DNA from: Pecten maximus
Lineage: Eukaryota
Direction: 5' to 3'
Assembly (NCBI RefSeq): GCF_902652985.1
Contig: NC_047019.1
Coordinates: 24,738,001-24,802,000 of the forward strand
DNA length: 64,000 nt
Below are positions 17,691 through 63,657 of the stretch, piece after piece (within the stretch, counting starts at the first letter, position 1; each line of letters begins with the position of its first letter). The notes beneath the pieces were generated by a model that saw only the letters and a program-made list of their open reading frames with translations, was not told the origin of the DNA and did no database searches. Position numbers and translations under genes: made by a program.

Positions 17691-18751
17691 TGAAACTAAA
17701 CGTTAAAGTCATATAGGCCTACATTATACATATGTAAGCTTAGTTCCATCCCGATTCCACGTATGTTAGTCCATAAACACAACCAAAGACGACTGCACGT
17801 TACAAATATTTTATTTCATAAATAGACATCGGTTTTTTTTTTACTAACTCATTCTATTTCTTAAGCTTACATCTTTTTAAACCAATCTGTAATTTTGACT
17901 TGGTTTTTGACTGAGACATAACGCCGGGTACTTACACACTGATATAGATTCATAAAAATAACGCTGGAAAGACAACCACCTAGAAAAGCACGATTTATTT
18001 ACGCATGGCTGATTAGTTTGAATAATATTATTACAATAATTCAATGTTAAATAAGTGACAAGATATATACACTGGTGTTATTATTCAACAAGTAGGGCGT
18101 TGATTGTTCTTCTTTATAACAAAAATTGTTGTCTGACTACCATAATAACCATTCCCAGAGATAACTGTACCCAACGGAAAGCAAAAACCAACATGTGTCA
18201 TCACAGGTTCTTGAAAATTAGAGATTCATAGTATTTGACCGATAATTTGGTGCTACTTAAAAGTGATAGTTAACAAGCATACTGTTGTACAAAGGATAAA
18301 TCATTCATCCGAATACATAAAAAATTGAAGAAAAGTAAGATTTTGATACTCTGATCATTACTGAATCAAGCACCTTCACAAAATAGGACAAAAACATTAA
18401 GCGAAGTAAGTGCACAAAAGGAATTGTGATATTACAAAGTTTTATTTAGCCGGCTGGGTATATATAAACCACTGCATACTTAATGAAATGTAAACGCGAT
18501 AAATAAAGTAATAAGATGACGTTATATATTAGTAGAGTTTTGTGGAGTTTTAATTCGGTTAATTGGCTCGCATCTTAAACAGTTAAAAAGGAAATACGAT
18601 GAAAAAAACTGTGTATTATCAATGAGACTTGAAAATCGTCTTTATTATCAGTACGGGCATCGTCAGATCGTAAAGTGATATTTTAAGGTCTAAGGAAAAG
18701 GAAATAGCTACGTACCACAATTTATGTTTGTGTTCCGGATCAGTAAGGAGA

Positions 18752-21700: not shown

Positions 21701-24700
21701 AAAACACTCTGCCTGGCCACCATGTATTTATATCGTTCTACACCAAACACTCTACCTGGCCAACATGTATTGATATCGTTATACACCAAACACTCTAATG
21801 GCCACCATGTATTTATATCGTTATACACCAAACACTTTACCTGGCCACCATGTATTTATATCGTTATACACCAAACACTCTACCTGGCCACCATGTATTG
21901 ATATCGTTCTACACCAAACACTCTAATGGCCACCATGTATTTATATCGTTCTACACCAAACACTCTACCTGGCCACCATGTATTGATATCGTTATACACC
22001 AAACACTCTACCTGGCCACCATGTATTTATATCGTTATACACCAAACACTCTACCTGGCCACCATGTATTTATATTGTTCTACACAAAAAACTCTACCTG
22101 GCCACCGTGTATTTATATTGTTCTACACCAAACACTCTACCTGGCCACCATGTATTTATATCGTTCTACACCAAACACTCTACCTGGCCACCATGTATTT
22201 ATATCGTTATACACCAAACACTCTACCTGGCCACCATGTATTTATATCGTTATACACCAAACACTCTACCTGGCCACCATGTATTTATATCGTTCTACAC
22301 CAAACAACCTGGTCCCCGTGTATGTATATAGGTCTACACCAAACACTCTGCCTGGCCACCATGTATTTATATCGTTCTACACCAAACACTCTACCTGGCC
22401 ACCATGGTTATATATCGTTCTACAACAAACAATTTACCTGGCCACCATGTATTTATATCGCTCTACACAAAACACTCTACCTGGCCACCATGTATTTATA
22501 TCGTTCTACACCAAACAACCTGGTCCCCGTGTATGTATATAGCTCTACACAAAACACTCTGCCTGGCCACCATGTATTTATATCGTTCTACACCAAACAA
22601 CCTGGTCCCCGTGTATGTATATAGGTCTACACCAAACACTCTACCTGGCCACCATGTATTTATATCGTTCTACACCTAACAACCTGGTCCCCGTGTATGT
22701 ATATAGGTCTACACAAAACACTCTACCTGGCCATCATGTATTTATATCGCTCTACACCAAACACTCTACCTGGCCACCATGTATTTATATCGTTCTACAC
22801 AAAACACTCTGCCTGGCCACCATGTATTTATATCGCTCTACACCAAACACTCTGCCTGGCCACCATGTATTTATATAGCTCTACACCAAACACTCTACCT
22901 GGCCACCATGTATTTATATCGTTCTACACCAAACACTCTAATGGCCACCATGTATTTATATAGCTCTACACCAAACACTCTACCTAGCCACCATGTATTG
23001 ATATCGTCCTACACCAAACACTCTACCTGGCCACCATGGATATATATTGTTCTGCAACAAACAATTTACCTGGCCACCATGTATTTATATCGCTCTACAC
23101 AAAACACTCTGCCTGGCAACCATGTATTGATATCGCTCTACACCAAACAACCTGGTCCTCGTGTATGTATATAGCTCTATACCAAACACTCTGCCTGGCC
23201 ACCATGTATTTATATAGCTCTACACCAAACACTCTACCTGGCCACCATGTATTTATATAGCTCTACACCAAACACTCTACCTGGCCACCATGTATTTATA
23301 TCGCTCTACACAAAACACTCTGCCTGGCCACCATGTATTTATATCGTTCTACACCAAACACTCTACCTGGCCACCATGGATATATATCGCTCTACACCAA
23401 ACACTCTACCTGGCCACCATGTATTGATATCGTTTTACACCAAACACTCTAATGGCCACCATGTATTGATATCGCTCTACACAAAACACTCTACCTGACC
23501 AAAATGTATTTATATCGTTCTACACCAAACACTCTACCTGGCCACCATGTATATATATCGTTCTACACCAAACAACCTGGTCCTCGTGTATGTATATAGG
23601 TCTACACGAAACACTCTACCTGGCCACCATGAATGAATATCGTTCTACAACAAACACTCTACCTGGCCACCATGTATTTATATTGTTCTACACCAAACAC
23701 TCTACCTGGCCACCATGTATTGATATCGTTCTACACCAAACACTCTAATGGCCACCATGTATTTATATCGTTCTACACCAAACACTCTACCTGGCCACCA
23801 TGGATATATATCGTTCTAAAACAAACAATTTACCTGGCCACCATGTATTTATATCGTTCTACACAAAACACTCTGCCTGGCCACCATGTATTGATATCGC
23901 TCTACACCAAACAACCTGGTCCTCGTGTATGTATATAGCTCTACACCAAATACTCTGCCTGGCCAGCAGGTATTTATATAGCTCTACACCAAACACTCTA
24001 CTTGGCCACCATGTATTTATATCGTTCTACACCAAACACTCTAATTGCCACCATGTATTGATATTGTTCTACACAAAACACTCTAATGGCCACCATGTAT
24101 TTATATAGCTCTACACCAAACACTTTGCCTGGCCACCATGTATTTATATAGCTCTACACCAAACACTCTGCCTGGCCAACATGTATTTATATCGTTCTAC
24201 ACCAAACACTCTACTTGGCCACCATGTATTTATATAGCTCTACACCAAACACTCTACCTAGCCACCATGTATTTATATCGTTCTACACCAAACACTCTAA
24301 TGGCCACCATGGATATATATCGCTCTACACCAAACACTCTACCTGACCACAATGTATTTATATAGCTCTACACCAAACACTCTACCTGGCCACCATGGAT
24401 ATATATCGCTCTACACCAAACACTCTACCTGGCCACCATGTATTTATATCGTTCTACACCAAACACTCTACCTGGCCACCATGGATATATATCGCTCTAC
24501 ACCAAACACTCTGCCTGGCCACCATGTATTTATATCGTTATACACCAAGCACTCTACTTGGCCACCATGTATTTATATTGTTCTACACCAAACACTCTAC
24601 CTGGCCACAATGTATTTATATCGTTCTACACCAAACACTCTACCTGGCCACCATGTATTTACATCGTTCTACACCAAACATTCTACCTGGCCACCATGTA

Positions 24701-27700
24701 TTTATATCGCTCTACACCAAACACTCTACCTGGCCACCATGTATTTATATAGCTCTACACCAAACACTCTACCTAGCCACCATGTTTTTATATCGTTCTA
24801 CACCAAACACTTTGCCTGGCCACCATGTATTTATATCGCTCTACAAAAAACATTTTGCCTGGACACCATGTATTTATATTGTTCTACACCAAACACTCTA
24901 CCTGGCCACCATGTATTTATATCGTTCTACACCAAACAACCTGGTCCTCGTGTATGTATATATCTCTACACAAAACACTCTAATGGCCACCATGTATTTA
25001 TATTGTTCTACACCAAACACTCTGCCTGGCCACCATGTATTTATATTGTTCTACACCAACCAACCTGGTCCCCGTGTAAGTATATAGGTCTACACAAAAC
25101 ACTCTAATGGCCACCATGTATTTATATTGTTCTACACAAAACACTCTGCCTGGCCACCATGTATCTATATTGTTCTACACCAAACACTCTACCTGGCCAC
25201 CATGTATCTATATTGTTCTACACCAAACACTCTACCTGGCCACCATGTATTTATATCGTTATACACCAAACACTCTACCTGGCCACCATGTATTTATATC
25301 GTTATACACCAAACACTCTACCTGGCCACCATGTATTTATATCGTTCTACACCAAACAACCTGGTCCCCGTGTATGTATATAGGTCTACACCAAACACTC
25401 TGCCTGGCCACCATGTATTTATATCGTTCTACACCAAACACTCTACCTGGCCACCATGGTTATATATCGTTCTACAACAAACAATTTACCTGGCCACCAT
25501 GTATTTATATCGCTCTACACAAAACACTCTACCTGGCCACCATGTATTTATATCCTTCTACACCAAACAACCTGGTCCCCGTGTATGTATATAGCTCTAC
25601 ACAAAACACTCTGCCTGGCCACCATGTATTTATATCGTTCTACACCAAACAACCTGGTCCCCGTGTATGTATATAGGTCTACACCAAACACTCTACCTGG
25701 CCACCATGTATTTATATCGTTCTACACCTAACAACCTGGTCCCCGTGTATGTATATAGGTCTACACAAAACACTCTACCTGGCCATCATGTATTTATATC
25801 GCTCTACACCAAACACTCTACCTGGCCACCATGTATTTATATCGTTCTACACAAAACACTCTACCTGGCCACCATGTATTCATATCGCTCTACACCAAAC
25901 ACTCTGCCTGGCCACCATGTATTTATATAGCTCTACACCAAACACTCTACCTGGCCACCATGTATTTATATCGTTCTACACCAAACACTCTAATGGCCAC
26001 CATGTATTTATATAGCTCTACACCAAACACTCTACCTAGCCACCATGTATTGATATCGTCCTACACCAAACACTCTACCTGGCCACCATGGATATATATT
26101 GTTCTGCAACAAACAATTTACCTGGCCACCATGTATTTATATCGCTCTACACAAAACACTCTGCCTGGCAACCATGTATTGATATCGCTCTACACCAAAC
26201 AACCTGGTCCTCGTGTATGTATATAGCTCTATACCAAACACTCTGCCTGGTCACCATATATTTATATCGCTCTACACAAAACACTCTGCCTGGCCACCAT
26301 GTATTTATATCGTTCTACACCAAACACTCTACCTGGCCACCATGGATATATATCGCTCTACACCAAACACTCTACCTGGCCACCATGTATTGATATCGTT
26401 CTACACCAAACACTATAATGGCCACCATGTATTGATATCGCTCTACACAAAACACTCTACCTGACCAAAATGTATTTATATCGTTCTACACCAAACACTC
26501 TACCTGGCCACCATGTATATATATCGTTCTACACCAAACAACCTGGTCCTCGTGTATGTATATAGGTCTACACGAAACACTCTACCTGGCCACCATGAAT
26601 GAATATCGTTCTACAACAAACACTCTACCTGGCCACCATGTATTTATATTGTTCTACACCAAACACTCTACCTGGCCACCATGTATTGATATCGTTCTAC
26701 ACCAAACACTCTAATGGCCACCATGTATTTATATCGTTCTACACCAAACACTCTACCTGGCCAACATGGATATATATCGTTCTAAAACATACAATTTACC
26801 TGGCCACCATGTATTTATATCGTTCTACACAAAACACTCTGCCTGGCCACCATGTATTGATATCGCTCTACACCAAACAACCTGGTCCTCGTGTATGTAT
26901 ATAGCTCTACACCAAATACTCTGCCTGGCCAGCAGGTATTTATATAGCTCTACACCAAACACTCTACTTGGCCACCATGTATTTATATCGTTCTACACCA
27001 AACACTCTAATTGCCACCATGTATTGATATTGTTCTTCACAAAACACTCTAATGGCCACCATGTATTTATATAGCTCTACACCAAACACTTTGCCTGGCC
27101 ACCATGTATTTATATAGCTCTACACCAAACACTCTGCCTGGCCACCATGTATTTATATCGTTCTACACCAAACACTCTACTTGGCCACCATGTATTTATA
27201 TAGCTCTACACCAAACACTCTACCTAGCCACCATGTATTTATATCGTTCTACACCAAACACTCTAATGGCCACCATGGATATATATCGCTCTACACCAAA
27301 CACTCTACCTGACCACAATGTATTTATATAGCTCTACACCAAACACTCTACCTGGCCACCATGGATATATATAGCTCTACACCAAACACTCTACCTGGCC
27401 ACCATGTATTTATATCGTTATACACCAAACACTCTACCTGGCCACCATGGATATATATCGCTCTACACCAAACACTCTGCCTGGCCACCATGTATTTATA
27501 TCGTTCTACACCAAACACTCTACTTGGCCACCATGTATTGATATCGTTCTACACCAAACACTCTAATGGCCACCATGTATTTATATCGCTCTACACCAAA
27601 CAATTTGCCTGGCCACCATGTATTTATATAGCTCTACACCAAACACTCTACCTGGCCACAATGTATTTATATCGTTCTACACCAAACACTCTACCTGGCC

Positions 27701-30700
27701 ACCATGTATTTACATCGTTCTACACCAAACATTCTACCTGGCCACCATGTATTTATATCGCTCTACACCAAACACTCTACCTGGCCACCATGTATTTATA
27801 TAGCTCTACACCAAACACTCTACCTAGCCACCATGTTTTTATATCGTTCTACACCAAACACTTTGCCTGGCCACCATGTATTTATATCGCTCTACACAAA
27901 ACACTCTGCCTGGCCACCATGAATATATATCGCTCTACACAAAACATTTTGCCTGGACACCATGTATTTATATTGTTCTACACCAAACACTCTACCTGGC
28001 CACCATGTATTTATATCGTTCTACACCAAACACTCTACCTAGCCACCATGTTTTTATATTGTTCTACACCAAACACTTTGCCTGGCCACCATGTATTTAT
28101 ATCGCTCTACACAAAACACTCTGCCTGGCCACCATGAATATATATCGCTCTACACAAAACATTTTGCCTGGACACCATGTATTTATATTGTTCTACACCA
28201 AACACTCTACCTGGCCACCATGTATTTATATTGTTCTACACCAACCAACCTGGTCCCCGTGTAAGTATATAGGTCTACACAAAACACTCTAATGGCCACC
28301 ATGTATTTATATTGTTCTACACAAAACACTCTGCCTGGCCACCATGTATCTATATTGTTCTACACCAAACACTCTACCTGGCCACCATGTATCTATATTG
28401 TTCTACACCAAACACTCTACCTGGCCACCATGTATTTATATCGTTATACACCAAACACTCTACCTGGCCACCATGTATTTATATCGTTATACACCAAACA
28501 CTCTACCTGGCCACCATGTATTTATATCGTTCTACACCAAACAACCTGGTCCCCGTGTATGTATATAGGTCTACACCAAACACTCTGCCTGGCCACCATG
28601 TATTTATATCGTTCTACACCAAACACTCTACCTGGCCACCATGGTTATATATCGTTCTACAACAAACAATTTACCTGGCCACCATGTATTTATATCGCTC
28701 TACACAAAACACTCTACCTGGCCACCATGTATTTATATCCTTCTACACCAAACAACCTGGTCCCCGTGTATGTATATAGCTCTACACAAAACACTCTGCC
28801 TGGCCACCATGTATTTATATCGTTCTACACCAAGCAACCTGGTCCCCGTGTATGTATATAGGTCTACACCAAACACTCTACCTGGCCACCATGTATTTAT
28901 ATCGTTCTACACCAAACACTCTACCTGGTCCCCGTGTATGTATATAGGTCTACACAAAACACTCTACCTGGCCATCATGTATTTATATCGCTCTACACCA
29001 AACACTCTACCTGGCCACCATGTATTGATATCGTTCTACACAAAACACTCTACCTGGCCACCATGTATTTATATCGCTCTACACCAAACACTCTGCCTGG
29101 CCACCATGTATTTATATAGCTCTACACCAAACACTCTACCTGGCCACCATGTATTTATATCGTTCTACACCAAACACTCTAATGGCCACCATGTATTTAT
29201 ATAGCTCTACACCAAACACTCTACCTAGCCACCATGTATTGATATCGTCCTACACCAAACACTCTACCTGGCCACCATGTATTTATATAGCTCTACACCA
29301 AACACTCTGCCTGGCCACCATGCATTTATATCGTTCTACACCAAACACTCTGCCTGGCAACCATGTATTGATATCGCTCTACACCAAACAACCTGGTCCT
29401 CGTGTATGTATATAGCTCTATACCAAACACTCTGCCTGGCCACCATATATTTATATCGCTCTACACAAAACACTCTGCCTGGCCACCATGTATTTATATC
29501 GTTCTACACCAAACACTCTACCTGGCCACCATGGATATATATCGCTCTACACCAAACACTCTACCTGGCCACCATGTATTGATATCGTTCTACACCAAAC
29601 ACTCTACCTGGCCACCATGGTTATATATCGTTCTACAACAAACAATTTACCTGGCCACCATGTATTTATATCGCTCTACACAAAACACTCTACCTGGCCA
29701 CCATGTATTTATATCCTTCTACACCAAACAACCTGGTCCCCGTGTATGTATATAGCTCTACACAAAACACTCTGCCTGGCCACCATGTATTTATATCGTT
29801 CTACACCAAACAACCTGGTCCCCGTGTATGTATATAGGTCTACACCAAACACTCTACCTGGCCACCATGTATTTATATCGTTCTACACCTAACAACCTGG
29901 TCCCCGTGTATGTATATAGGTCTACACAAAACACTCTACCTGGCCATCATGTATTTATATCGCTCTACACCAAACACTCTACCTGGCCACCATGTATTTA
30001 TATCGTTCTACACAAAACACTCTACCTGGCCACCATGTATTTATATCGCTCTACACCAAACACTCTGCCTGGCCACCATGTATTTATATAGCTCTACACC
30101 AAACACTCTACCTGGCCACCATGTATTTATATCGTTCTACACCAAACACTCTAATGGCCACCATGTATTTATATAGCTCTACACCAAACACTCTACCTAG
30201 CCACCATGTATTGATATCGTCCTACACCAAACACTCTACCTGGCCACCATGTATTTATATAGCTCTACACCAAACACTCTGCCTGGCCACCATGCATTTA
30301 TATCGTTCTACACCAAACACTCTGCCTGGCAACCATGTATTGATATCGCTCTACACCAAACAACCTGGTCCTCGTGTATGTATATAGCTCTATACCAAAC
30401 ACTCTGCCTGGCCACCATATATTTATATCGCTCTACACAAAACACTCTGCCTGGCCACCATGTATTTATATCGTTCTACACCAAACACTCTACCTGGCCA
30501 CCATGGATATATATCGCTCTACACCAAACACTCTACCTGGCCACCATGTATTGATATCGTTCTACACCAAACACTCTAATGGCCACCATGTATTGATATC
30601 GCTCTACACAAAACACTCTACCTGACCAAAATGTATTGATATCGTTCTACACCAAACACTCTACCTGGCCACCATGTATATATATTGTTCTACACCAAAC

Positions 30701-33700
30701 AACCTGGTCCTCGTGTATGTATATAGGTCTACACGAAACACTCTACCTGGCCACCATGAATGAATATCGTTCTACAACAAACACTCTACCTGGCCACCAT
30801 GTATTTATATTGTTCTACACCAAACACTCTACCTGGCCACCATGTATTGATATCGTTCTACACCAAACACTCTAATGGCCACCATGTATTTATATCGTTC
30901 TACACCAAACACTCTACCTGGCCAACATGGATATATATCGTTCTAAAACAAACAATTTACCTGGCCACCATGTATTTATATCGTTCTACACAAAACACTC
31001 TGCCTGGCCACCATGTATTGATATCGCTCTACACCAAACAACCTGGTCCTCGTGTATGTATATAGCTCTACACCAAATACTCTGCCTGGCCAGCAGGTAT
31101 TTATATAGCTCTACACCAAACACTCTACTTGGCCACCATGTATTTATATCGTTCTACACCAAATACTCTAATTGCCACCATGTATTGATATTGTTCTTCA
31201 CAAAACACTCTAATGGCCACCATGTATTTATATAGCTCTACACCAAACACTTTGCCTGGCCACCATGTATTTATATAGCTCTACACCAAACACTCTGCCT
31301 GGCCACCATGTATTTATATCGTTCTACACCAAACACTCTACTTGGCCACCATGTATTTATATAGCTCTACACCAAACACTCTACCTAGCCACCATGTATT
31401 TATATCGTTCTACACCAAACACTCTAATGGCCACCATGGATATATATCGCTCTACACCAAACACTCTACCTGACCACAATGTATTTATATAGCTCTACAC
31501 CAAACACTCTACCTGGCCACCATGGATATATATCGCTCTACACCAAACACTCTACCTGGCCACCATGTATTTATATCGTTATACACCAAACACTCTACCT
31601 GGCCACCATGGATATATATCGCTCTACACCAAACACTCTGCCTGGCCACCATGTATTTATATCGTTCTACACCAAACACTCTACTTGGCCACCATGTATT
31701 TATATTGTTCTACACCAAACACTCTAATGGCCACCATGTATTTATATCGCTCTACACCAAACAATTTGCCTGGCCACCATGTATTTATATAGCTCTACAC
31801 CAAACACTCTACCTGGCCACAATGTATTTATATCGTTCTACACCAAACACTCTACCTGGCCACCATGTATTTACATCGTTCTACACCAAACATTCTACCT
31901 GGCCACCATGTATTTATATCGCTCTACACCAAACACTCTACCTGGCCACCATGTTTTTATATCGTTCTACACCAAACACTTTGCCTGGCCACCATGTATT
32001 GATATCGCTCTACACAAAACACTCTGCCTGGCCACCATGAATATATATCGCTCTACACAAAACATTTTGCTTGGACACCATGTATTTATATTGTTCTACA
32101 CCAAACACTCTACCTGGCCACCATGTATTTATATCGTTCTACACCAAACAACCTGGTCCTCGTGTATGTATATATCTCTACACAAAACACTCTAATGGCC
32201 ACCATGTATTTATATTGTTCTACACCAAACACTCTGCCTGGCCACCATGTATTTATATTGTTCTACACCAACCAACCTGGTCCCCGTGTAAGTATATAGG
32301 TCTACACAAAACACTCTAATGGCCACCATGTATTTATATTGTTCTACACAAAACACTCTGCCTGGCCACCATGTATCTATATTGTTCTACACCAAACACT
32401 CTACCTGGCCACCGTGTATTTATATTGTTCTACACAAAAAAACTCTACCTGGCCACCATGTATTTATATAGCTCTACACCAAACACTCTACCTAGCCACC
32501 ATGTATTGATATCGTTCTACACCAAACACTCTAATGGCCACCATGTATTTATATCGTTCTACACAAAACACTCTACCTGGCCACCATGTATTTATATCGC
32601 TCTACACCAAACACTCTAATGGCCACCATGTATTTATATAGCTCTACACAAAACATTTTGCCTGGCCACCATGTATTGATATCGCTCTACACCAAACACT
32701 TTGCCTGGCCATCATGTATTTATATAGCTCTACACCAAACACTCTACCTGGCCACCATGTATTTATATCGTTATACACCAAACACTGCCTGGCCACCATG
32801 GATATATATCGTTATACACCAAACACTCTAATGGCCACCATGTATTTATATCGTTCTACACAAAACACTCTACCTGGCCACCATGTATTTATATCGCTCT
32901 ACACCAAACACTCTAATGGCCACCATGTATTTATATAGCTCTACACAAAACGTTTTGCCTGGCCACCATGTATTGATATCGCTCTACACCAAACACTTTG
33001 CCTGGCCATCATGTATTTATATAGCTCTACACCAAACACTCTACCTGGCCACCATGTATTTATATCGTTATACACCAAACACTCTGCCTGGCCACCATGT
33101 ATTTATATCGCTCTACACCAAACACTCTACCTGGCCACCATGTATTTATATCGTTATACACCAAACACTCTGCCTGGCCACCATGTATTTATATAGCTCT
33201 ACACCAAACACTCTACCCGGCCACCATGTATTTATATCGTTATACACCAAACACTCTGCCTGGCCACCATGTATTTATATAGCTCTACACCAAACACTCT
33301 ACCTGGCCACCATGTATTTATATCGTTCTACACCAAACACTCTGCCTGGCCACCATGTATTTATATAGCTCTACACCAAACACTCTGCCTGGCCACCATG
33401 CATTTATATCGTTCTACACCAAACACTCTACCTGGCCACCATGGATATATATCGTTCTACACCAAACAACCTGGTCCCCGTGTATGTATATAGGTCTACA
33501 CCAAACACTCTGCCTGGCCACCATGTATTTATATCGCTCTACACAAAACACTCTGCCTGGCCACCATGTATTTATATCGTTCTACACCAAACAACCTGGT
33601 CCTCGTGTATGTAAATAGCTCTATACCAAACACTCTGCCTGGCCACCATGTATTTATTCGCTCTACACAAAACACTCTGCCTGGCCACCATGTATTGATA

Positions 33701-35100
33701 TCGTTCTACACCAAACACTCTAATGGCCACCATGTATTTATATTGTTCTACACCAAACACTCTACCTGGCCACCATGGATATAAATCGTTCTACACCAAA
33801 CACTCTACCTGGCCACCATGGATATATATCGTTCTTCACCTAACACTCTACCTGGCCACCATGGATATACTGTAAACGTACTTAAATTGTAAAATATGAT
33901 TTATTAGCGTGGACGTGAATTAGCGCAGTCGTCCCGACTACGCTAAAAAAATCCGGAAAATATTTCAGTTCTAAAATTAGGCACCGACAAAACAGGCAAG
34001 CACTGACAGACGACCCGTGTTCTAAAATTAGACATCGACTAAACATGCGACCACTGATAGATGTATGAATAGACGACCCGTGTTCTACAGATAAGTCACT
34101 AGTGAACTGTTTTCATTAAAATTACATGTGAGTTGTAGTTGTTATGTTATTTATTAACTTCCCAAAGCCGATTTCAGTATTCTGAATTTCACCATGTTGA
34201 AAAGATGGTTAGTGTCGGCTGTCAATTCCCCACCGCCATCGGCAACTTTATCAGAGGTGTTGGTAATAAAAGTTGAGCTTACAGAGAGTATTTTTTGTGA
34301 TTAGTCTAAACAAACATTTTATCCAGCTATTGGGCTGTCCTACGACTTCAATAGGGCATATCAGGTATTACCTGTGTTGGATATATTCCCCCTGTTTGAT
34401 ACCAATGGAATATTCTAGCTACATTGTAGTAGTGGTATCGACAAATGATGGCCGCCGGCTTGCATTGACTACCGTTATACGTAAGTACACTTGTGTAAAT
34501 ATTCAGTTTTAAATTCAAAATTTTAGCGCTGTACATGAATTAGCGCTCCACAAAGAGCGCGAAAAGCGCTAAAATTAAACTACCGCTAAAATAAGTACGT
34601 TTATGGTATATCGTTCTACAACAAACACTCTAATGGCTACCATGTATTTATATCGCTCTACACCAAACACTCTAATGACCACCATGGATATATATCGTTC
34701 TACATCAACACTCTGTCTGGCCACCGTGTATTTATATCGTTCTACACCAAACACTCTAATGGCCACCATGTATTTATATCGTTCTACACCAAACAACCTG
34801 GTCCCCGTGTATGTATATAGGTCTAAACCAAACACTCTACCTGGCCACCATGTATTTATATCGCTCTACACCAAACACTCTACCTGGCCAACATGTATTG
34901 ATATCGCTCTACACCAAACACTCTAATGGCCATCATGTATTTATATAGTTCTATACCAAACCCTCTACCTGGCCACCGTGGATTTATATCTCTCTACACC
35001 AAACACTCTACCTGGCCACCATGGATATATATCGTTCTACACCAAACACTCTACCTGGCCACAATGTATTTATATCGCTCTACACCAAACATACTATCTA
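18752..35100. repeat. 43-bp satellite array (roughly 360-370 units) with higher-order repeats
   Basis: Consensus CTACACCAAACACTCTACCTGGCCACCATGTATTTATATCGTT, with 42-bp (..CTCTAATGGCC..) and 39-bp (..CAACCTGGTCCCCGTGTATGTATATAGGT) variants. It accounts for the periodic ORFs in 18.7-35.2 kb. Confidence 0.98.
33870..34606. mobile_element. MITE with TA target duplication inserted in the satellite
   Basis: TA|CTGTAAACGTACTTA...TAAGTACGTTTATGG|TA; removing it and one TA restores the unit GGATATATATCG; subterminal TTAGCG/CGCTAA repeats. Confidence 0.85.
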
Positions 35101-54900: not shown

Positions 54901-57900
54901 ATATTGGACAATACATTATTGATTTCATGAAAGATAAGTTGTTAAGAATAAGTATTTGGTTGTAAAGGCCATGAACATGTATTATTATCGATGTGTGACG
55001 TTTACAAATGGGTTCGTCACTACCTCTAATAGATCCTGGTTAGTGACTAGTCTACAGATGCAAATATATACAAATATTACTACTATTTGGTAGCCTTTAA
55101 CATTTAACGAGAACATATAACACATAAAATATAAGTTTTATATATACAGTGGTCTGTCTGACCGCTGACACTTAATCTTAATACTATAACTCGTCCCGTA
55201 CCACTCACAACGGCTAGTTATAATTACTGGTCGCCGGTCTGTGTGTGACCGCTGACTATACGGCTACGGGGATTCAGTGACTAGCAATATGTGTAATCGA
55301 ACATGATTATACGCTCTGACTGTTCCCATGTATTTTCATCGGCCACCTAACCCCTGGTGTTTGCTGCTGACCACCAACACTACTTATAGTATGGTCGCTG
55401 ACATGCCCGCCGACTACCTTGTAGTTGCTGACTTGACCGTCGACTACCTGCTTGTAGTCGCCAACTAAATTGTAGTCGCTAACCTATCAGCCTCTGCCAA
55501 ACCCTCTGTGTTAAAACGATTAGTTGATGGATCAAGGAGAAGACCGTGGTCACATCTATCTTTCCATAACTAGCTACCTTTCTTAGGGTCTCTCCGCTTC
55601 TGTCTGTACAGTTTTGGATGCCGAAATCAGAGTGTTTGTGTTCTGTCAGAGCCGGCTTTTATACCCTCCGATATAGACCATCTGAGTCATTCAAGTGTTT
55701 TACATGCAAGGGTAGGATTACATAATCAAGCGTGCGGGAGAATGCACGAGAATAGTTCAGGACCCGGATGAACACATGTAAACAATACACAACGATGCCT
55801 GATCGGTATGTGTTATCTATTTTCATTACACTACCCACGCCTTCGAGGTTGAAGCTTCCATGCTTCTTAATTATGTTAGAACGAAATCAAAGAACCAAAG
55901 GAAAACAATTATTTACAAAACAAATAAACTTTCTTTATTAATCCAGCAGTGTTGAAACACTAGTGTACGGACACTTCGTTTAAGTGAGGTCCGTCCAAAC
56001 GTTGTGGGCATCTAGCCTATTCTCTATTTCCAGTGAAGGTATCCAAATAAAAGTAGGTTTCATCTACCGTGGTTTGTTTCACTTGCTTGCCTGCCTCATG
56101 ATATCGACAAGTGGTCGTGACTGTCCGCTTAGTTTTGTTCATGGCGGGCTCCGTCTGGACTCCAACACTAACAAAACGTCGACTAACCGTACTCGTATGT
56201 CGCTTCGTGGGATGATCCAGAGTTACTGGTTTCGGGATGACATGTCGCAGATCTGTGGCACGTAGCCTTTTGCCTGGTTCACCACTTTGTTCTGCTATTC
56301 TCTTCTTATGAAATGGCAGTGTAGGTTTTGTTGATTTCCTGATCACCCGACCCATCAAAGAATCATCCGGGGGTACAGGATTTGTGGCCACTGCTGTAGC
56401 TGAGGTTGAAGGTCTGTTGTCAGATGGGACAACTGGCTCAGTAGTTTCTTTCTCCGACTCCTCGGACAGTAAGCTCCCAGGGTCCTGCTTTTGCCAATCT
56501 TCTGTTTCCTTAGGCGAAGGATAGGAATCATCATCCGACCCATCGTCACTATCACTACTGGAGCTGCTTGAGCTGTCACTGGATCCTGCGGTCTGCTTAT
56601 CCTCTGGTAGATTAGACACATGGACGGTCTCAGGTTGGCTGTTTTTGTCCATACCCTTCTCTTCGATATGTCTTTTCTCATGACGAGTAAGGTATACTTG
56701 CTTTGTAGTCGTGAAATTACAATGAGTACAGGCAAATGCATTCTTTTCAGAGTGTTTCAGACCACACATCACAAGATGCTCCCTGAGCTCTTCTGTTCCA
56801 GCGGTTCTGAACTTGCACATAGGACATGCCTTCATTGGGGTCGTCTTTGTGTTTACCATTCTCTGAAAGTACCAAAAGCTTTGATTAGTGGTATATCTTC
56901 TTCATGTGATACAGGTATTTTATGATAAAACATCTCAAGACATAGACTAGTACAAAATATAGTCAGAGTGTTTGGCAGGTGCTTTCCTATGTCTGCGACC
57001 CTGTTTTGGGTTAGTTTCTATATTCTTAGAACTAATATTCTTAAGGTCTCTCCCAGACTCGTTTTCACTCTCTTTGAAAGTAGCACTCTCCTCACACCAA
57101 TCACTTCTACTGTCATCAACTTGCTTGCTCTCGAAACAACTCTCGTCAACCTGAGTCTGTTGCTCTTTAACTTTTGCAAAATCCTCTGCATTCTCATTCC
57201 TGAGCATCTGAACCTTTTTTGGCTTCATGCGGTCTACATGAATTACTTGTAGCTTCCCTTTTCGCCCACAGCGTACGCGATATGTGACGTCAGTGAGTTT
57301 TGATATCACTCGGAATGGACCCTTCCAGCGACAGGCTAGCTTTGAACTTTGTCCTGTCTTGACGTTGGGAAAGAAAACGAATACATCATCACCAGCTTTG
57401 AATGGTTGCCAGGAGAGTTTCTGATCATGAAGCTTCTTCTGTCTAAGCATTCGTCCCTTTACACTTTCTCTGACTAACTGATGTGCGTCTTCCATCTTTT
57501 CCTGTAGCTCCCACGCCCATGTATTCTGTGGTAATGCTTTCAGATTTCGTGGCATTGAGTATTGTAGATCTAGTGGAGTAGAAGTTTCTCTTCCAAGCAT
57601 CATGAAGTTTGGGGAATTGGAAGTGGTCTCATGTTCGGTTGACCGATATGCCATCATGACATATGGCAAGTGTCTGTCCCAGTCAGTGTGTCGCTCATTC
57701 ACAAATGCCCTCAACATGGTAACCAGTGTCTTATTGAACCGCTCAACCATACCATCTGACTGCGGGTGGTAGGGAGTGGTACGGGTCTTTTGAATTTGCA
57801 GTATACGACACATTTCCCGAAACAATGCACTCTCAAACTGAGAGCCCTGATCTGAATGGATAATACTGGGGACTCCGAATCGACAGACGACTTCTTCTAC

Positions 57901-60900
57901 CAGTATGCGTGCTACGGTCTCTGCGTTCATGTTTTGCATTGGAAAACTTTCTGTCCACTTTGTGTAGTAGTCGGAGATAACCAAGATGTGCCTGTTGCCA
58001 TCATCGGTCTCCGGCAATTCGCACAGAATGTCCATAGCTATGCGCTCCATTGGGTATCCCGATTCAGTTATCTGCATAGGTGCTCTCTTGGTTTTTGTCA
58101 TGTTCTTGCTCTTAGCACACATCGTGCAACCAGTGACATATCGTTTGATATCATCTTGTATCCCAGGCCAGTAATACTGTTGGCGGATCTTGGCAAGAGT
58201 CTTTCTTGTTCCCAGATGAGCAGCTGTCTTGTTATCATGGGCATGACCAAGGATTGTGCGACGTTCGTTTCTAGGAACTATGATATGAACTACTCCTTTT
58301 TGTGTTTTTCTCACCAATAGATCATCTTGAATGGACAGTATTTCAAACTGTGACCATAGGGATTTCACTGTTTTGTTTCTGCCACCTATGGACTTATACC
58401 CAGGTCTTTCCCCTTTCTTGACCCAGTCAATAACCAGACCTAAGTCATCATCTTCCTCTTGTTTTTCGCTCAGGGTTTTCTCACGTTTTTCTTTTTCATC
58501 AGATTTACAAGTGTCTATGCTCCTCACTATCTGAGCTGTAGATTCAGTTGCTCGATTGTCTGCCTTCAGTTCCCAGTCTGGGTCAAAGTTGCATTGACGA
58601 CAAGGGATCCTGCTCAGTCCATCGGCATTCTGATGTTGCTTCCCTGGTCGATGAATGATGTGCATGTCATATGAGCTTAACACCTGAAGCCATCTTGCCA
58701 TCTGGCCCTCTGGGTCTTTGAAATTCAGCAACCATCTGAGCGAACTGTGGTCTGTTCTGACAGTAAACTTTCTGCCATACAGATAATGCCGGAAGTATTT
58801 TGTGAAATTGACGACAGCCAGTAACTCTTTACGCGTTACGCAATACTTCCTCTCTGCCTTGGTCAATGTTCGTCCTGCAAATGCTATGGGTCTCTCTATG
58901 CCATCAATTTCCTGTGATAGTGCAGCCCCAATAGCTTCATGACTCGCATCGGTGTCGAGTATGAACTCTTTACTAAAATCAGGGTGGGCCAGAGTTTTTG
59001 CACTTGTCAATTCTCTTTTCAGAATCTCATACGCTTCCTGACACTGAGGTGTCCAATCAAATTTCCGTCCCTTTTCTGTCAGCTTGTGTAGGCATTTCGC
59101 AATCACAGAAAAGTTTCTGACAAACTTTCTGTAATAACTACAGAACCCCAGGAATGACCGCAGTTGTTTGATGTTGACTGGGACTGGCCACTCCGCAACT
59201 TTCTTCACCTTATCTGGGTCGGTGGAGATACCTTCCTCCGAGATCTTGTGGCCAAGGTAAATGACTTCTTTGGCAAACAGACAACATTTTCTCGCCTTTA
59301 GCTTTAATCCAGCTTCTTGTAAGCGTTTGAACACTTGTTGCAGATTCTCAATCATGTCTTCAAATGTCTTCCCGGTCACGATTATATCGTCTAGGTAAAT
59401 TAAACAGGTCTGCCACTGTAAACCTGCTAGTACCGTTTCCATCAGTCTCTCGAATGTCGCAGGAGCTGACGCTAGACCAAAAGGCATGACCGTGAACTCA
59501 TAAAGACCTGTTCTTGTCGCAAATGCAGTCTTCTGGCGATCTTCAGGAGCCAAATCAACCTGCCAATAACCGGAGTTTAGGTCGAGTGTTGAGAACCACG
59601 AGCAACCTGACATTTGATCAAGAGCCTCGTCAATACGTGGAAGTGGATACGCATCCGGAATGCTAACAGCATTCAGCTGTCGATAATCCACGCAAAATCG
59701 TAAGCTCCCGTCCTTCTTTTTCACGAGGACGATCCCAGAACTCCATGGACTGGAGGATTTCTGTATGATCCCTCTGTCAAGCATATCCTTTACTTGTCTA
59801 TCAATCTCGGGACCAAGATTGCCTGGCACTCTTCTTACTGGCTGTTTTATGGGTTTGGCACCCCCAGTGTTGATCTTATGTTGAATCAAGTCTGTTCTAC
59901 CCAGATCGTCGTCAGTAACGGCAAACAGGTTCTGATGTTTTAGCAGCAATTCATACCCAGCGTTGTATTGATCTGTTGTAAGATTATTTTTGGAGTCATT
60001 CAACAATGTTTGGATATCTGCCCTAAGTCCAGCTACTTTGTTAGGTGTCGGTTCGTCGACGGTTCCCATTACACCATCAATAGTGCTGACCTGAGCAATC
60101 GTTGTCCCTGGGTAAAATTGTTGACTCTCGTTGCCCAGATTCATTAATCTTACAGGCACCGTAGTATCATACTGCACAAGTGCCCTAGCGACTAATGCTC
60201 TCTCTGTCTTAAGAAAAGTCGCTGGTTTCTCAACTAGAAGTAGTTTGCTGGCTGTTTACACCTTCTGGTAAACATACCTTCCCTTGGACCACGACCTCAC
60301 TGTTGGCAGGAATGGTTACCTTCTCTGTAAGTGAAAGTCGGTAGCAACCCATAGCACCCTCGTAGAATGTCGGTACCGTTACATCATCAAGTGTGAGAAC
60401 ACCTTTCTTGAAATCAAGAGACCCATTTCTCTCCTGCATTATGTCTAGACCCAGAATACCATCGGTATTAATCTTAGCAATAATTGCTTCCACATAAATG
60501 TCTTTTGTCTTATTAAGCCGGATGACAAAACTCCCTTTGCCCTTGACCTCAAGTTTCTCACCACTAGCTGTTAAAACATCTTGGTGAACTCTACTCAGGC
60601 GAGGTTTAGCCGATTCTGTAATTTTATCAAACACTCGCTCTGATATGATGGTGACTGTTGCCCCTGTGTCAACCAATAGGTTTACTTTAGTTCCATGAAC
60701 TTCGGCAGTTATATACATGCCTGCTTCCTGCACGGCTGTAGACAACCCAATGCCAGCTCTTGGTTTCTTTTGTCTCTGTCGACGATGGGTGTTCACCTGC
60801 TGGGCCCCTGGTTGTTTCTGACTTTTATTAGGGTCATTCTTTTTGTCAGGCTTGGGACAATTTCTACGAAAATGTCCCTCCTCACCACAGTTAAAGCAGT

Positions 60901-63657
60901 TCTTGTTCCTGACCACATTAGACCTACTTCTAGACTTCATCTTTCCAACGTCCTTTTCCAGAGACTCTAGCTTTTTCTGCATGTCCTGGAGCAGTTTTAA
61001 CATCTCTGACCCCTCAGATGTTTCAGTATTAGTATTTCTAAGATATGATTGGCCTTCCTTTGATTTCTTCTCACAGCGGTTGTATGCCTCTAATTCAACC
61101 GATAGTTGTATGGCCTCAGTCAAATTCTTAGGCCTCGACTGTTTGATTCTTATGCGCATCTCGGAGTCTGCAAGTGCTTCAATGAACTGTTGCATAGCCA
61201 ATGTCTCCCTAACATCATTTGGCACTGTGCGATATGCCAAGTTCACAAGCCGTCTAATCGCTTGTCCCAGTTCTGGTAAACTTTCCGATGCTTTTTGACG
61301 CCTCTCCATTAACTGAACCCTATAAAGCTCAGTCTGGTTTGGGGGAGCAAACCTCTCCTCCAAGGCTTTGACTAGCGACTCATAATCCTGCTGCTTAGGA
61401 ATGTCAAGGTCACCCAGTATCCCTTGAGCTTGGCCCCGCAATGCTACTGCTAAGTGGAGACCTTTCTCATTATCAGTCCATCGGTTTATTCGAGAACAAG
61501 CATCAAAATGTGATTTGAAGTCAACCCATGGAGATGTGCCGTCATATGTTGCCGCTTTCACGGTAACCATTTTACTTTTATATTTTGTCGACATGTCCCT
61601 GACTTCATCATCTGTTTCTTCAGCATCCCTCCTGCTGGCAACTCTACTCATTCTTTTTTTTCTGGTGGTTACATTGTCATATTTGTGACCATCTAGTCTG
61701 TGATCATTATCCACACCCAACGGACATGGTACAGATGTCATTGGTTTAGTGCGAGACAATAGATTGTGACTGCTAGCCTGCATCTGTTTCATTTGTTCTC
61801 CGAGCTCTTTAATCTCTTGTTCAAACTTTTGTATACTTTCGTCCCTTAATCCAAGACTATAGTCTGGAGAGAACCTCTCCGGTTTTAGACGAGTATCTTT
61901 TTCTTTGGTTCCAAACCCAGAGTCGACAACTGCGTGCTTCCGCATCGGTATATTGGGTTGTGTGATAGGGGTTGAGAAATCAAAATGAATATGACTTGTG
62001 TTGTTAAAGTCAAGACCATTATCTGATTCCCTGTCAGACTGGTCACTGGTATAGCCTTCTGCCATATTAAATCACAGAGAGAATATAAGTAACAAACAAT
62101 TTTTTTTTATTATTATTATTACATCAACAACAGTTTATAAACTGTAGACTACTAAAATGTCACAAACAAGTTGTCAAATAACCAGGATCCCGCCGCTGCC
62201 ACCAAAATTTGTGACGTTTACAAATGGGTTCGTCACTACCTCTAATAGATCCTGGTTAGTGACTAGTCTACAGATGCAAATATATACAAATATTACTACT
62301 ATTTGGTAGCCTTTAACATTTAACGAGAACATATAACACATAAAATATAAGTTTTATATATACAGTGGTCTGTCTGACCGCTGACACTTAATCTTAATAC
62401 TATAACTCGTCCCGTACCACTCACAACGTAACGGCTAGTTATAATTACTGGTCGCCGGTCTGTGTGTGACCGCTGACTATACGGCTACGGGGATTCAGTG
62501 ACTAGCAATATGTGTAATCGAACATGATTATACGCTCTGACTGTTCCTATGTATTTTCATCGGCCACCTAACCCCTGGTGTTTGCTGCTGACCACCAACA
62601 CTACTTATAGTATGGTCGCTGACATGCCCGCCGACTACCTTGTAGTTGCTGACTTGACCGTCGACTACCTGCTTGTAGTCGCCAACTAAATTGTAGTCGC
62701 TAACCTATCAGCCTCTGCCAAACACTCTGTGTTAAAACGATTAGTTGATGGATCAAGGAGAAGACCGTGGTCACATCTATCTTTCCATAACTAGCTACCT
62801 TTCTTAGGGTCTCTCCGCTTCTGTCTGTACAGTTTGGATGCCGAAATCAGAGTGTTTGTGTTCTGTCAGAGCCGGCTTTTATACCCTCCGATATAGACCA
62901 TCTGAGTCATTCAAGTGTTTTACATGCAAGGGTAGGATTACATAATCAAGCGTGCGGGAGAATGCACGAGAATAGTTCAGGACCCGGATGAACACATGTA
63001 AACAATACACAACGATGCCTGATCGGTATGTGTTATCTATTTTCATTACAGATGTACGTAAATTGATGGTAGAGATGAGGGAATGAAATTGAAACACGTC
63101 TTTTTATTTCATTATGTTTTAAACCTACAATATCAATACCTCGATACGTTGAAAATGTGTAACAAACAATTCAAGCATATTACGGAAGCTTGTTAGTGCC
63201 ACATGAAGATATAAAAATGTCGCAATAATCATGGTATACTTAGTCCTAGTAACGATGTGCCTAAGGCGTAATCGTGGGATAGCTATATCGTGATTTCGAG
63301 ATAAAAATTTACTTCATGTGACTCTTATTGGCTTCCATACTATAGTGATTTCCTTTATTACCTTCGCCTGGCCAGACATTCACTACTGTACGTCCTCCCA
63401 TTAACACCACACACAGGCCCGCCGTAACATCGCACGCCTGATAAATAGAATATTATTTTACTGACCACCTTAGTATCGAAGCATGTCAAAGATTTTTCTA
63501 TCAATCAAAATTAACGAAAAATGTACAAAGACATTGAAAAAATGTATGTCGCAATAAAACAAAATTGTGTTAAATTTTATAACTTACGCCTTGACTGGAC
63601 TTCACAAATCTGTAAATAGCCAGTGAGTAACACAAGTCCTGCTACCGCAATGTTCAT
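51992..63657 (-). CDS. Kazal gene C: secreted five-domain Kazal serine protease inhibitor, 7 exons, about 234 aa
   Basis: Exons 63657-63588 ([23 protein letters not shown]), 63437-63362, 53838-53713 (CTREYRPVC), 53475-53347 (CPLIYSPVC), 53114-52989 (CPKHLDRVC), 52350-52228 (CPLNFNPVC), 52046-51992 ([12 protein letters not shown]). Intron 2 holds the Gypsy element. Confidence 0.93.
54210..54815. repeat. Degenerate minisatellite of about 50 bp, rich in TGACGTCA
   Basis: About 12 diverged units of TATATGACGTCAGC..TATGGCCTCATTATCAGAGGGCACTGTCT. Confidence 0.75.
56017..56859 (-). CDS. Gypsy accessory ORF3: two zinc fingers, acidic/Ser-rich region and a VQT motif (280 aa)
   Basis: Intact ORF between the pol stop and the 3' LTR; CPMC-x12-H-x3-C and CTHC-x12-H-x3-H; splice acceptor TACTTTCAG 3 nt before the ATG. 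Confidence 0.8.
   Translation of the reverse strand: MVNTKTTPMKACPMCKFRTAGTEELREHLVMCGLKHSEKNAFACTHCNFTTTKQVYLTRHEKRHIEEKGMDKNSQPETVHVSNLPEDKQTAGSSDSSSSSSSDSDDGSDDDSYPSPKETEDWQKQDPGSLLSEESEKETTEPVVPSDNRPSTSATAVATNPVPPDDSLMGRVIRKSTKPTLPFHKKRIAEQSGEPGKRLRATDLRHVIPKPVTLDHPTKRHTSTVSRRFVSVGVQTEPAMNKTKRTVTTTCRYHEAGKQVKQTTVDETYFYLDTFTGNRE
56947..60177 (-). CDS. pol: Gypsy Pol (RT, RNase H, integrase)
   Basis: RFCVDYR, MPFGL, YLDD (RT); DTDAS, RTDH, NADGLSR (RNase H); H-H-C-C, MDI, HSDQG, VERFN (IN); WKGPF (GPY/F). The frame stays open upstream to about 60255. Confidence 0.97.
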   Translation of the reverse strand: MQYDTTVPVRLMNLGNESQQFYPGTTIAQVSTIDGVMGTVDEPTPNKVAGLRADIQTLLNDSKNNLTTDQYNAGYELLLKHQNLFAVTDDDLGRTDLIQHKINTGGAKPIKQPVRRVPGNLGPEIDRQVKDMLDRGIIQKSSSPWSSGIVLVKKKDGSLRFCVDYRQLNAVSIPDAYPLPRIDEALDQMSGCSWFSTLDLNSGYWQVDLAPEDRQKTAFATRTGLYEFTVMPFGLASAPATFERLMETVLAGLQWQTCLIYLDDIIVTGKTFEDMIENLQQVFKRLQEAGLKLKARKCCLFAKEVIYLGHKISEEGISTDPDKVKKVAEWPVPVNIKQLRSFLGFCSYYRKFVRNFSVIAKCLHKLTEKGRKFDWTPQCQEAYEILKRELTSAKTLAHPDFSKEFILDTDASHEAIGAALSQEIDGIERPIAFAGRTLTKAERKYCVTRKELLAVVNFTKYFRHYLYGRKFTVRTDHSSLRWLLNFKDPEGQMARWLQVLSSYDMHIIHRPGKQHQNADGLSRIPCRQCNFDPDWELKADNRATESTAQIVRSIDTCKSDEKEKREKTLSEKQEEDDDLGLVIDWVKKGERPGYKSIGGRNKTVKSLWSQFEILSIQDDLLVRKTQKGVVHIIVPRNERRTILGHAHDNKTAAHLGTRKTLAKIRQQYYWPGIQDDIKRYVTGCTMCAKSKNMTKTKRAPMQITESGYPMERIAMDILCELPETDDGNRHILVISDYYTKWTESFPMQNMNAETVARILVEEVVCRFGVPSIIHSDQGSQFESALFREMCRILQIQKTRTTPYHPQSDGMVERFNKTLVTMLRAFVNERHTDWDRHLPYVMMAYRSTEHETTSNSPNFMMLGRETSTPLDLQYSMPRNLKALPQNTWAWELQEKMEDAHQLVRESVKGRMLRQKKLHDQKLSWQPFKAGDDVFVFFPNVKTGQSSKLACRWKGPFRVISKLTDVTYRVRCGRKGKLQVIHVDRMKPKKVQMLRNENAEDFAKVKEQQTQVDESCFESKQVDDSRSDWCEESATFKESENESGRDLKNISSKNIETNPKQGRRHRKAPAKHSDYILY
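60230..62065 (-). CDS. gag: Gypsy Gag plus aspartic protease
   Basis: YDGT..W..F capsid-like region, [14 protein letters not shown] zinc knuckle, LVDTGA and GILGLD protease motifs. Confidence 0.95.
   Translation of the reverse strand: MAEGYTSDQSDRESDNGLDFNNTSHIHFDFSTPITQPNIPMRKHAVVDSGFGTKEKDTRLKPERFSPDYSLGLRDESIQKFEQEIKELGEQMKQMQASSHNLLSRTKPMTSVPCPLGVDNDHRLDGHKYDNVTTRKKRMSRVASRRDAEETDDEVRDMSTKYKSKMVTVKAATYDGTSPWVDFKSHFDACSRINRWTDNEKGLHLAVALRGQAQGILGDLDIPKQQDYESLVKALEERFAPPNQTELYRVQLMERRQKASESLPELGQAIRRLVNLAYRTVPNDVRETLAMQQFIEALADSEMRIRIKQSRPKNLTEAIQLSVELEAYNRCEKKSKEGQSYLRNTNTETSEGSEMLKLLQDMQKKLESLEKDVGKMKSRSRSNVVRNKNCFNCGEEGHFRRNCPKPDKKNDPNKSQKQPGAQQVNTHRRQRQKKPRAGIGLSTAVQEAGMYITAEVHGTKVNLLVDTGATVTIISERVFDKITESAKPRLSRVHQDVLTASGEKLEVKGKGSFVIRLNKTKDIYVEAIIAKINTDGILGLDIMQERNGSLDFKKGVLTLDDVTVPTFYEGAMGCYRLSLTEKVTIPANSEVVVQGKVCLPEGVNSQQTTSS

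Follow-up and report, generated by a model that had tools for sequence, protein, structure and literature searches.

A spliced and conserved zinc-finger reading frame at the env position of a Pecten maximus Gypsy element, with a histone H3-like N-terminus and a candidate LC8 motif

The retrotransposon and its spliced third reading frame

The window analyzed here, i.e., a stretch of 64,000 nucleotides from Pecten maximus (contig NC_047019.1, positions 24,738,001 to 24,802,000), contains a Ty3/Gypsy LTR retrotransposon that spans 63050-54994 on the minus strand (the strand of all element features given below) and carries a third open reading frame (ORF3) after pol. Its assignment to Ty3/Gypsy is based on the presence of LTRs, a primer-binding site, a polypurine tract and a target site duplication, and on the order gag-PR-RT-RH-IN. 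The 5' LTR (62210..63050; 841 nt, TG...CA) and the 3' LTR (54994..55830; 837 nt) are flanked by the target duplication CATC (63051-63054 and 54990-54993), and a purine-rich tract (55831..55844) is located upstream of the 3' LTR. The primer-binding site (62187..62204), which we take to be of the tRNA-Leu type, recurs as the same motif after the LTR in all families listed. Gag (with a Ty3-type capsid and a CCHC knuckle) and protease are encoded at 60230..62065, and reverse transcriptase, RNase H and integrase at 56947..60255 in a frame broken from gag-protease; this disruption of gag-pol lies near 60.25 kb, and most sister copies show a single 1707-codon frame. ORF3 (56017..56859; 280 amino acids, with the ATG at 56859 and the stop codon ending at 56017) begins 88 nt past the pol stop. 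The insertion is both young and polymorphic, given the near identity of the two LTRs (2 substitutions and 2 indels) and the empty site that runs X1 and X17 contain. ORF3 DNA has at least 17 matches in the genome, 13 of them nearly full length, and the RefSeq proteins of P. maximus include one identical to ORF3 (P0001), annotated as 'ZFPM2-like'.

Exons resembling Kazal-type protease inhibitors, recognized by eye, are located on either side of the element and on the same strand (63350-63460 and 53574-53888, minus strand). The element thus appears, from its sequence surroundings, to sit in sense orientation in an intron of a multi-Kazal gene, where its acceptor and poly(A) site could be truncating the host transcript. 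Other features of the window include degenerate 47-49-nt repeats rich in TGACGTCA (CRE-like) just past the 3' LTR (54190-54770), a satellite of approx. 15 kb with more than 350 copies of 43-nt units and a strong C/G skew (18750-34000), and a MITE-like inverted repeat pair with arms of 104 and 75 nt (14131-14905).

ORF3 is made from a spliced RNA of approx. 1 kb. RNA contigs join a donor in the 5' LTR (62799) to an acceptor immediately ahead of ORF3 (56862), with GT..AG on the element strand and 5936 nt skipped. This joint was found in 3 of the 8 runs examined, i.e., X4 and X5 (study P2, on record as RNA) and X11 (study P6, presumed to be RNA); the 8 runs, from 24 listed, were all examined as contigs, which indicate presence only and provide no ranking of expression. 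Runs X8, X9, X1 and X17 contained no 62799-56862 junction, X1 and X17 covering the element continuously, while a contig from X7 ends at 56862 with 30 unplaced letters. As none of the 17 genomic ORF3 matches starts at the exon boundary, as would be expected of a processed copy, these DNA matches include no instance of the joined form. The original prediction, made from the letters of the window, had proposed that ORF3 has its own acceptor and is expressed from a spliced subgenomic RNA; the junction falls exactly on that acceptor, in contigs from two studies.

The non-coding exon 1 (62799..62853; approx. 55 nt) ends at the GT donor within the LTR and starts at 62853 in the X11 contig, 30 nt after the TATA box TATAAAA (62877..62883). 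As exon 1 holds no AUG, Met1 of ORF3 is the first start of the spliced RNA. A pyrimidine tract and the AG acceptor of the 5936-nt intron occupy 56863..56876. Downstream of ORF3 and upstream of the 3' LTR, which lacks AATAAA, an AATAAA (55939-55934) is followed by a poly(A) site at approx. 55915-55917 (together 55915..55939), where a poly(A) run ends a single X11 contig. Separately, contigs from X1, X7 and X11 leave the LTR donor (62798) into sequence foreign to the element, and several runs share, at 55833, an upstream flank that does not belong to the element; an expressed host transcript seems to include another LTR copy as an exon.

Conservation, loss and domestication of ORF3

Genome protein searches and 100 fetched 10-kb stretches yielded eight sister families (F1 to F8), with pol 54-66% identical to that of F1. 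The check originally proposed, for an ORF3 with its own acceptor in related Gypsy families, was positive in 8/8 families: ORF3 is found at the same place (22-35% identical to the window ORF3), a YAG precedes its ATG by 1-11 nt, and the fingers and the QT motif recur. A GT donor approx. 76-90 nt past the LTR TATA is present in 6/8 families and an internal AATAAA or ATTAAA in 4/8. Families F1 to F4 form one group whether the tree is built from RT (99) or from ORF3 (82), both being quick trees, and the type of ORF3 follows the RT tree. In all copies of F3 and F4 examined, the pol frame continues without a stop into ORF3 (1937 and 1968 codons, respectively), and the acceptor is retained. Two tandem F1 copies with one common LTR were also observed (L163, L164; G000:C6:40.67-40.69 Mb).

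Ten pairs were compared for dN/dS, which was 0.13-0.22 in the 5 diverged pairs and 0.16-0.79 in the 5 close pairs, where changes are few; between families, synonymous sites are saturated in most finger comparisons. Changes in ORF3 within families numbered 32 synonymous, 41 replacement and 3 stop, on 194.5/645.5 sites, and in F6 ORF3 is under weaker constraint than integrase (0.65 vs. 0.27). The values below 1 in diverged pairs, as had been anticipated, reject neutral decay. A recent capture from the host, which the original prediction had named as a result that would speak against it, is likewise rejected, as the only host-like copy nests inside an element family. Overall, these comparisons support an ancient, vertically inherited ORF3 under purifying selection.

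Profile searches yielded dozens more full-length homologues. Twenty were looked up, with Mizuhopecten, Argopecten, Ostrea, Saccostrea and a clam-symbiont metagenome record among the named sources and with several multicopy clusters; the homologues in other scallops and in oysters are probably linked to elements. A metagenome scan found one locus of the ORF3 family with gag-pol-ORF3, genome and viral scans for ORF3 context in other species found no locus, and a weak search for pol-fused forms in other species found 0 among 302 candidates. Further out on the RT tree, the next clade includes five loci with a related ORF3 bearing VQC or IQC, and other finger ORFs follow pol at 20 of the 22 Gypsy loci that are more distant (integrase 49-57% identical). 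Among these distant ORFs, three have a C-terminal QT motif and three a BTB_2 domain above the Pfam cut-off; replacement by a BTB domain in three distant families suggests that oligomerization is part of the design. The combination of zinc fingers with a KCTD-type BTB_2 was observed in one Gypsy subclade (L129:6499-7719, L130:6496-7737 and L132:1990-3534).

Clean deletions of the acceptor together with ORF3 were found in F1 (1 copy), F7 (8 copies) and F8 (2 copies). In F7, the 8 ORF3-less copies (7 of them with one breakpoint) compare with 3 ORF3-bearing copies, and the ORF3-less copies of F8 also lack the donor in the LTR. As ORF3-deleted lineages transposed repeatedly, ORF3 is not needed in cis. 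The spread of these copies is equally explained by an ORF3 that is dispensable or inhibitory, while its long retention despite repeated clean deletion may reflect a shared benefit that is used by cheaters. A non-autonomous lineage of another kind was observed in F2, where five pol-deleted derivatives with near-identical LTRs (L066, L067, L068, L073 and L075) have gag-protease joined to an ORF3 without its first 30-38 codons.

A single-copy, pol-less ORF3 (P0019; L079:7797-8474, G000:C10:29841196-29841873) shows no gag or pol match in approx. 27 kb, nests beside F7 with a dN/dS of 0.19 relative to F7, and has counterparts in Mizuhopecten and Ylistrum (61-64% identical; P0019-P0021). Its match to histone H3 is degraded. 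P0019 is likely a domesticated copy of ORF3.

Zinc fingers, H3-like N-terminus and LC8-type motif

The intact 280-residue ORF after pol and its Ser/Asp/Glu tract, HKKR and KRLR patches and 10-residue motif (residues 229-238) are all present as originally described. The reading of ORF3 as a protein other than Env also held: signal peptide, transmembrane anchor and fusion ectodomain are lacking, no Env Pfam match was obtained, and the best 19-residue Kyte-Doolittle mean is 0.24; among 52 members of the ORF3 family, one is marginally above 1.6. A C2HC finger (C12-x2-C15-x12-H28-x3-C32; 56764..56826) is modeled with a pLDDT of approx. 90, with C15, H28 and C32 invariant in 52 sequences. It is followed by a C2H2 finger (C44-x2-C47-x12-H60-x3-H64; 56668..56730), which the Pfam zf-C2H2 profile matches weakly (19.4 bits vs. 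a cut-off of 25.2). In this second finger, position -1 is basic (K/R in 47/49 sequences), position +3 is N/D (37/49) and position +6 is an invariant Arg (49/49); in the zinc-finger recognition code these are the canonical base-contact residues. Further along the protein, a conserved W-x3-D-P-G motif (residues 122-128; 56476..56496) precedes a hydrophobic-acidic stretch, and a conserved, basic R-K-x-T-x-P motif (residues 174-179; 56323..56340) is possibly an NLS or a phospho-site. Conservation of at least 90% across the 52 aligned sequences was observed for the finger ligands, R59, W122, D126, P127, G128, R174, T177, P179, Q235 and T236. In the AlphaFold model, a long helix connects two confident fingers, the middle of the protein is disordered, and a beta-hairpin is predicted at the C-terminus (residues 242-271; 56047..56136).

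The automatic RefSeq names FOG/ZFPM2, REST and HIVEP2 were rejected for these proteins, which have two fingers, are multicopy and lie within elements. A fold search with the ORF3 model returned weak C2H2 matches, none at E ≤ 0.001. In a protein atlas, whole ORF3 matched no named family and residues 160-280 gave no usable match, while 12% of the members of the second-ranked cluster contain a GAGA-type finger, which is taken as a lead. In several families, the LTR contains family-specific repeat arrays past the donor, an arrangement comparable to the targets of the plant anti-silencing protein VANC (PMC5735166, available text). LTR 6-mers were clearly enriched over the null in 4/8 families and marginally so in F1 and F7, while F5 and F8 showed no enrichment, and no LTR binding motif shared across families was found.

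Residues 2-10 of ORF3 (56830..56856) resemble residues 1-9 of histone H3 and overlap a T-P-x-K CDK-type site. Aligned in register from the Met, 48 sequences match host H3 at T3 (39), K4 (44), T6 (43), R8 (26) and K9 (31); 4 of the 52 sequences had no usable N-terminus and were dropped, and the better of two Mets was taken in 4. Mean identity to H3 1-9 was 4.0 of 9 positions, as compared to 1.27 in 2000 shuffles (maximum 1.73) and 0.89 in 98 unrelated finger proteins; since the 48 N-termini share one ancestor, this match counts as one event. Mismatches include R2 (0/48) and A1 (7/48), Q5 and A7 are unmatched, with P at position 7 in 32/48, and the T-P-x-K that this Pro creates, a motif of the CDK type or a basic one for DNA binding, could account for positions 6-9. 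The residue after the Met is V, P, A, G or T in 47/48 sequences. A small residue at this position permits removal of the initiator Met, which would expose an H3-like free N-terminus. SNAG N-termini of zinc-finger factors, as described in the available text of PMC5066116, are H3 mimics that sit in the cleft of LSD1 and are able to inhibit this enzyme. We regard the putative H3-like tail, which was absent from the original prediction, as the most informative clue to mechanism offered by the sequence.

Near the C-terminus, ORF3 contains the LC8-type motif VSVGVQTE (residues 230-237; 56149..56172). The original prediction had singled out this VQT motif as one to be conserved, and indeed its Q is found in 50 of the 52 sequences and its T in 47, with D/S at -4 in 40, G/A/S at -2 in 46, V/T at -1 in 47 and D/E at +2 in 41. 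A QT-type motif within the last 75 residues is present in 51/52 sequences, as compared to 13.8 in shuffles (maximum 25, in 1000 shuffles). The flanks agree with published LC8 preferences, as far as the available text of PMC6607443 gives them; ORF3 thus combines the sequence features of an LC8 client, i.e., a conserved x-Q-T anchor, compatible flanks and a disordered region. In a model of ORF3 with host LC8, the complex prediction that had been proposed as a check, the motif is placed in the LC8 groove with a score of 0.84 (best control, 0.12), contacts are at 227-239, the contacts agree between runs to at least 94% and the partner pLDDT is at least 68. The mark set for this score was reached by 51/78 solved and 2/108 mismatched pairs (39/65 and 2/126 in eukaryotes), in a benchmark composed without peptides or disordered chains. 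As LC8-peptide complexes have already been solved, the model may be reproducing known structures, and the score shows likeness, not binding; moreover, many TQT peptides fail to bind LC8 (PMC6607443, available text). Binding of the ORF3 C-terminus to host LC8 is therefore best described as predicted. The host genome also contains a cluster of five intronless LC8 genes (G000:C8:34.87-34.91 Mb; L088, L090-L093).

Candidate roles of ORF3 and related systems

We give about an even chance to the reading that ORF3 is a conserved accessory gene encoding a trans-acting, LC8-dimerized chromatin regulator that favors expression of the element or its LTR. In this reading, element DNA is the predicted target of the fingers, dimerization by host LC8 is likewise predicted, the H3-like tail likely serves as a ligand or decoy for a host enzyme acting as reader or modifier of H3K4/K9, and ORF3 would act in the nucleus and in trans, keeping the LTR of the element expressed. 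Deletion of the acceptor should favor a copy in cis, yet ORF3 was kept under selection in every family, which favors a positive action.

Against a positive regulator, the known H3-mimicking finger proteins are repressors. ORF3 could instead be a SNAG-like repressor, with the H3-like tail recruiting LSD1/NuRD-type co-repressors to the LTR, as a control of copy number or latency, or to host defense genes. SNAG-domain finger proteins repress via an H3-mimicking N-terminus (PMC5066116, available text), 8/48 members start with Pro as SNAG does, ORF3-deleted copies exceed intact ones in F7, and a host-domesticated copy exists. However, self-repression would give little reason to keep an acceptor that diverts RNA, yet purifying selection was found in 8/8 families, and the F/L hydrophobic core of SNAG is missing; we consider a repressor unlikely. 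According to the available text of PMC5066116, the SNAG factors SNAI1, GFI1 and INSM1 resemble ORF3 in combining an H3-mimicking extreme N-terminus with C2H2 fingers and in the T/R8/K9 register, but they are host genes with 4-6 C-terminal fingers and a P-R-S-F-L core, whereas ORF3 is element-encoded and keeps K4 and T3/T6. A SNAG domain proper was rejected for ORF3, as no SNAG Pfam match was obtained and positions 2-5 differ from the P-R-S-F-L-V-R-K type.

ORF3 might also be an early spliced product, comparable to Rev or CERV, through which full-length RNA would bypass both the LTR donor and the internal poly(A) site and be exported from the nucleus. The strong donor approx. 55 nt into the transcript, a poly(A) site ahead of a 3' LTR without AATAAA, the joint loss of ORF3 and donor in one F8 lineage and the precedent of CERV (PMC10309623, available text) agree with this proposal. 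Conversely, the predicted folding of R-U5 RNA does not exceed that of shuffles (z -1.1), so that a structured RRE-like RNA in this region is unsupported, internal poly(A) signals occur in 4/8 families only, selection would not maintain a gene needed merely to counter its own splicing, and the H3-like tail is left unexplained; we rate an export factor as quite improbable. A role as adaptor in integration or nuclear transport, i.e., a chromovirus-like tether acting with the pre-integration complex, with LC8 as dynein link or dimerizer, is of similarly low probability. The in-frame pol-ORF3 of F3 and F4 would suit such a role, but 6/8 families stop ahead of ORF3, F3 and F4 retain the acceptor, ORF3-less lineages integrated repeatedly, and fusion to pol would bury the free N-terminus.

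Least probable is that ORF3 is simply an activator that binds DNA, its N-terminus being no more than an NLS or a basic arm for DNA binding under CDK control, or that it has another role, e.g., as an LC8 sink: the T-P-x-K pattern (P7 in 32/48, K9 in 31/48) and the GAGA-type finger lead fit this reading, but a CDK site or NLS needs no conservation of K4 and T3, no fixed distance from the Met and no small first residue (47/48), and a sink fits poorly with one motif per chain. Competition with SFiNX for LC8 was rejected, as SFiNX is Diptera-specific (PMC7919418, available text).

ORF3 has counterparts among known systems. Complex retroviruses express accessory genes (Tat, Rev, Tas) as a third ORF from an LTR-proximal donor. 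Env-bearing errantiviruses share with ORF3 a third ORF at the env position and an LTR-proximal donor (PMC13524379, available text). ORF3, however, has no signal peptide, transmembrane segment or fusion protein, and no sequence similarity to errantivirus Env or the retroviral accessory genes was found. The closest precedent in kind is CERV of the Caenorhabditis elegans element Cer1 and, in proposed function, VANC (available texts of PMC10309623 and PMC5735166, respectively). CERV is also a non-Env accessory protein made from spliced RNA of an invertebrate Gypsy element, and it is nuclear; a spliced accessory protein in an invertebrate LTR retrotransposon, as originally proposed for ORF3, thus has a precedent (PMC10309623, available text). 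CERV differs in being a protein of 517 amino acids from 5 exons, partly common to gag, with a Cys loop, a G-protein-like domain and self-assembling rings (PMC10309623, available text), whereas ORF3 has a single coding exon preceded by a non-coding one in the LTR and contains C2HC and C2H2 fingers, an H3-like tail and an LC8 motif. Membership in the CERV family was rejected, as the ORF3 model contains fingers, disorder and a hairpin instead of H, M (Cys loop) and G domains. VANC of Arabidopsis VANDAL elements is transposon-encoded, trans-acting and family-specific, with tandem-repeat targets; the likeness is a proposed analogy, and VANC elements are plant DNA transposons while ORF3 belongs to an animal LTR retrotransposon (PMC5735166, available text). 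ASCIZ and Panoramix/SFiNX resemble ORF3 in having a TQT-type motif in a disordered C-terminal region, and LC8 dimerizes those nuclear chromatin factors, but both are host proteins and ORF3 is mostly single-motif (PMC6607443 and PMC7919418, available texts).

A literature search, with subscription journals, supplements, Repbase and GyDB (whose clade libraries may hold such ORFs unannotated) outside its scope, found no description of ORF3. The available text of a mollusc LTR survey (PMC6238403) contains neither 'ORF' nor 'zinc' and offers no diagnostic features by which the element could be assigned to a named mollusc Gypsy clade (MolGy1-16, Mag, CsRN1), and that of PMC13524379 contains neither 'zinc finger' nor 'ORF3'.

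More broadly, and more tentatively, a large and old clade of animal Gypsy elements may encode a modular counter-silencing factor, in which fingers would direct the protein to its own LTR, LC8 or BTB would multimerize it and the H3 mimic would jam or redirect H3K4/K9 enzymes, with the protein as a public good cheated by deletion lineages and one copy domesticated in scallops. If true, the protein would be a histone mimic encoded by a transposon and would correspond, in animals, to the VANC of plants. Few element-encoded candidates are available for the long-open question of how retrotransposons in animals withstand silencing by piRNAs and chromatin. ORF3 is a small, expressed and selected protein with three separable, testable modules (the H3-like tail, the fingers and the LC8 motif), for which natural deletion lineages provide controls and the many diverged families provide tests of specificity, and of which a likely domesticated host copy exists. 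Many bivalve RefSeq proteins named REST-like, ZFPM2-like or HIVEP2-like are likely to be retrotransposon accessory genes.
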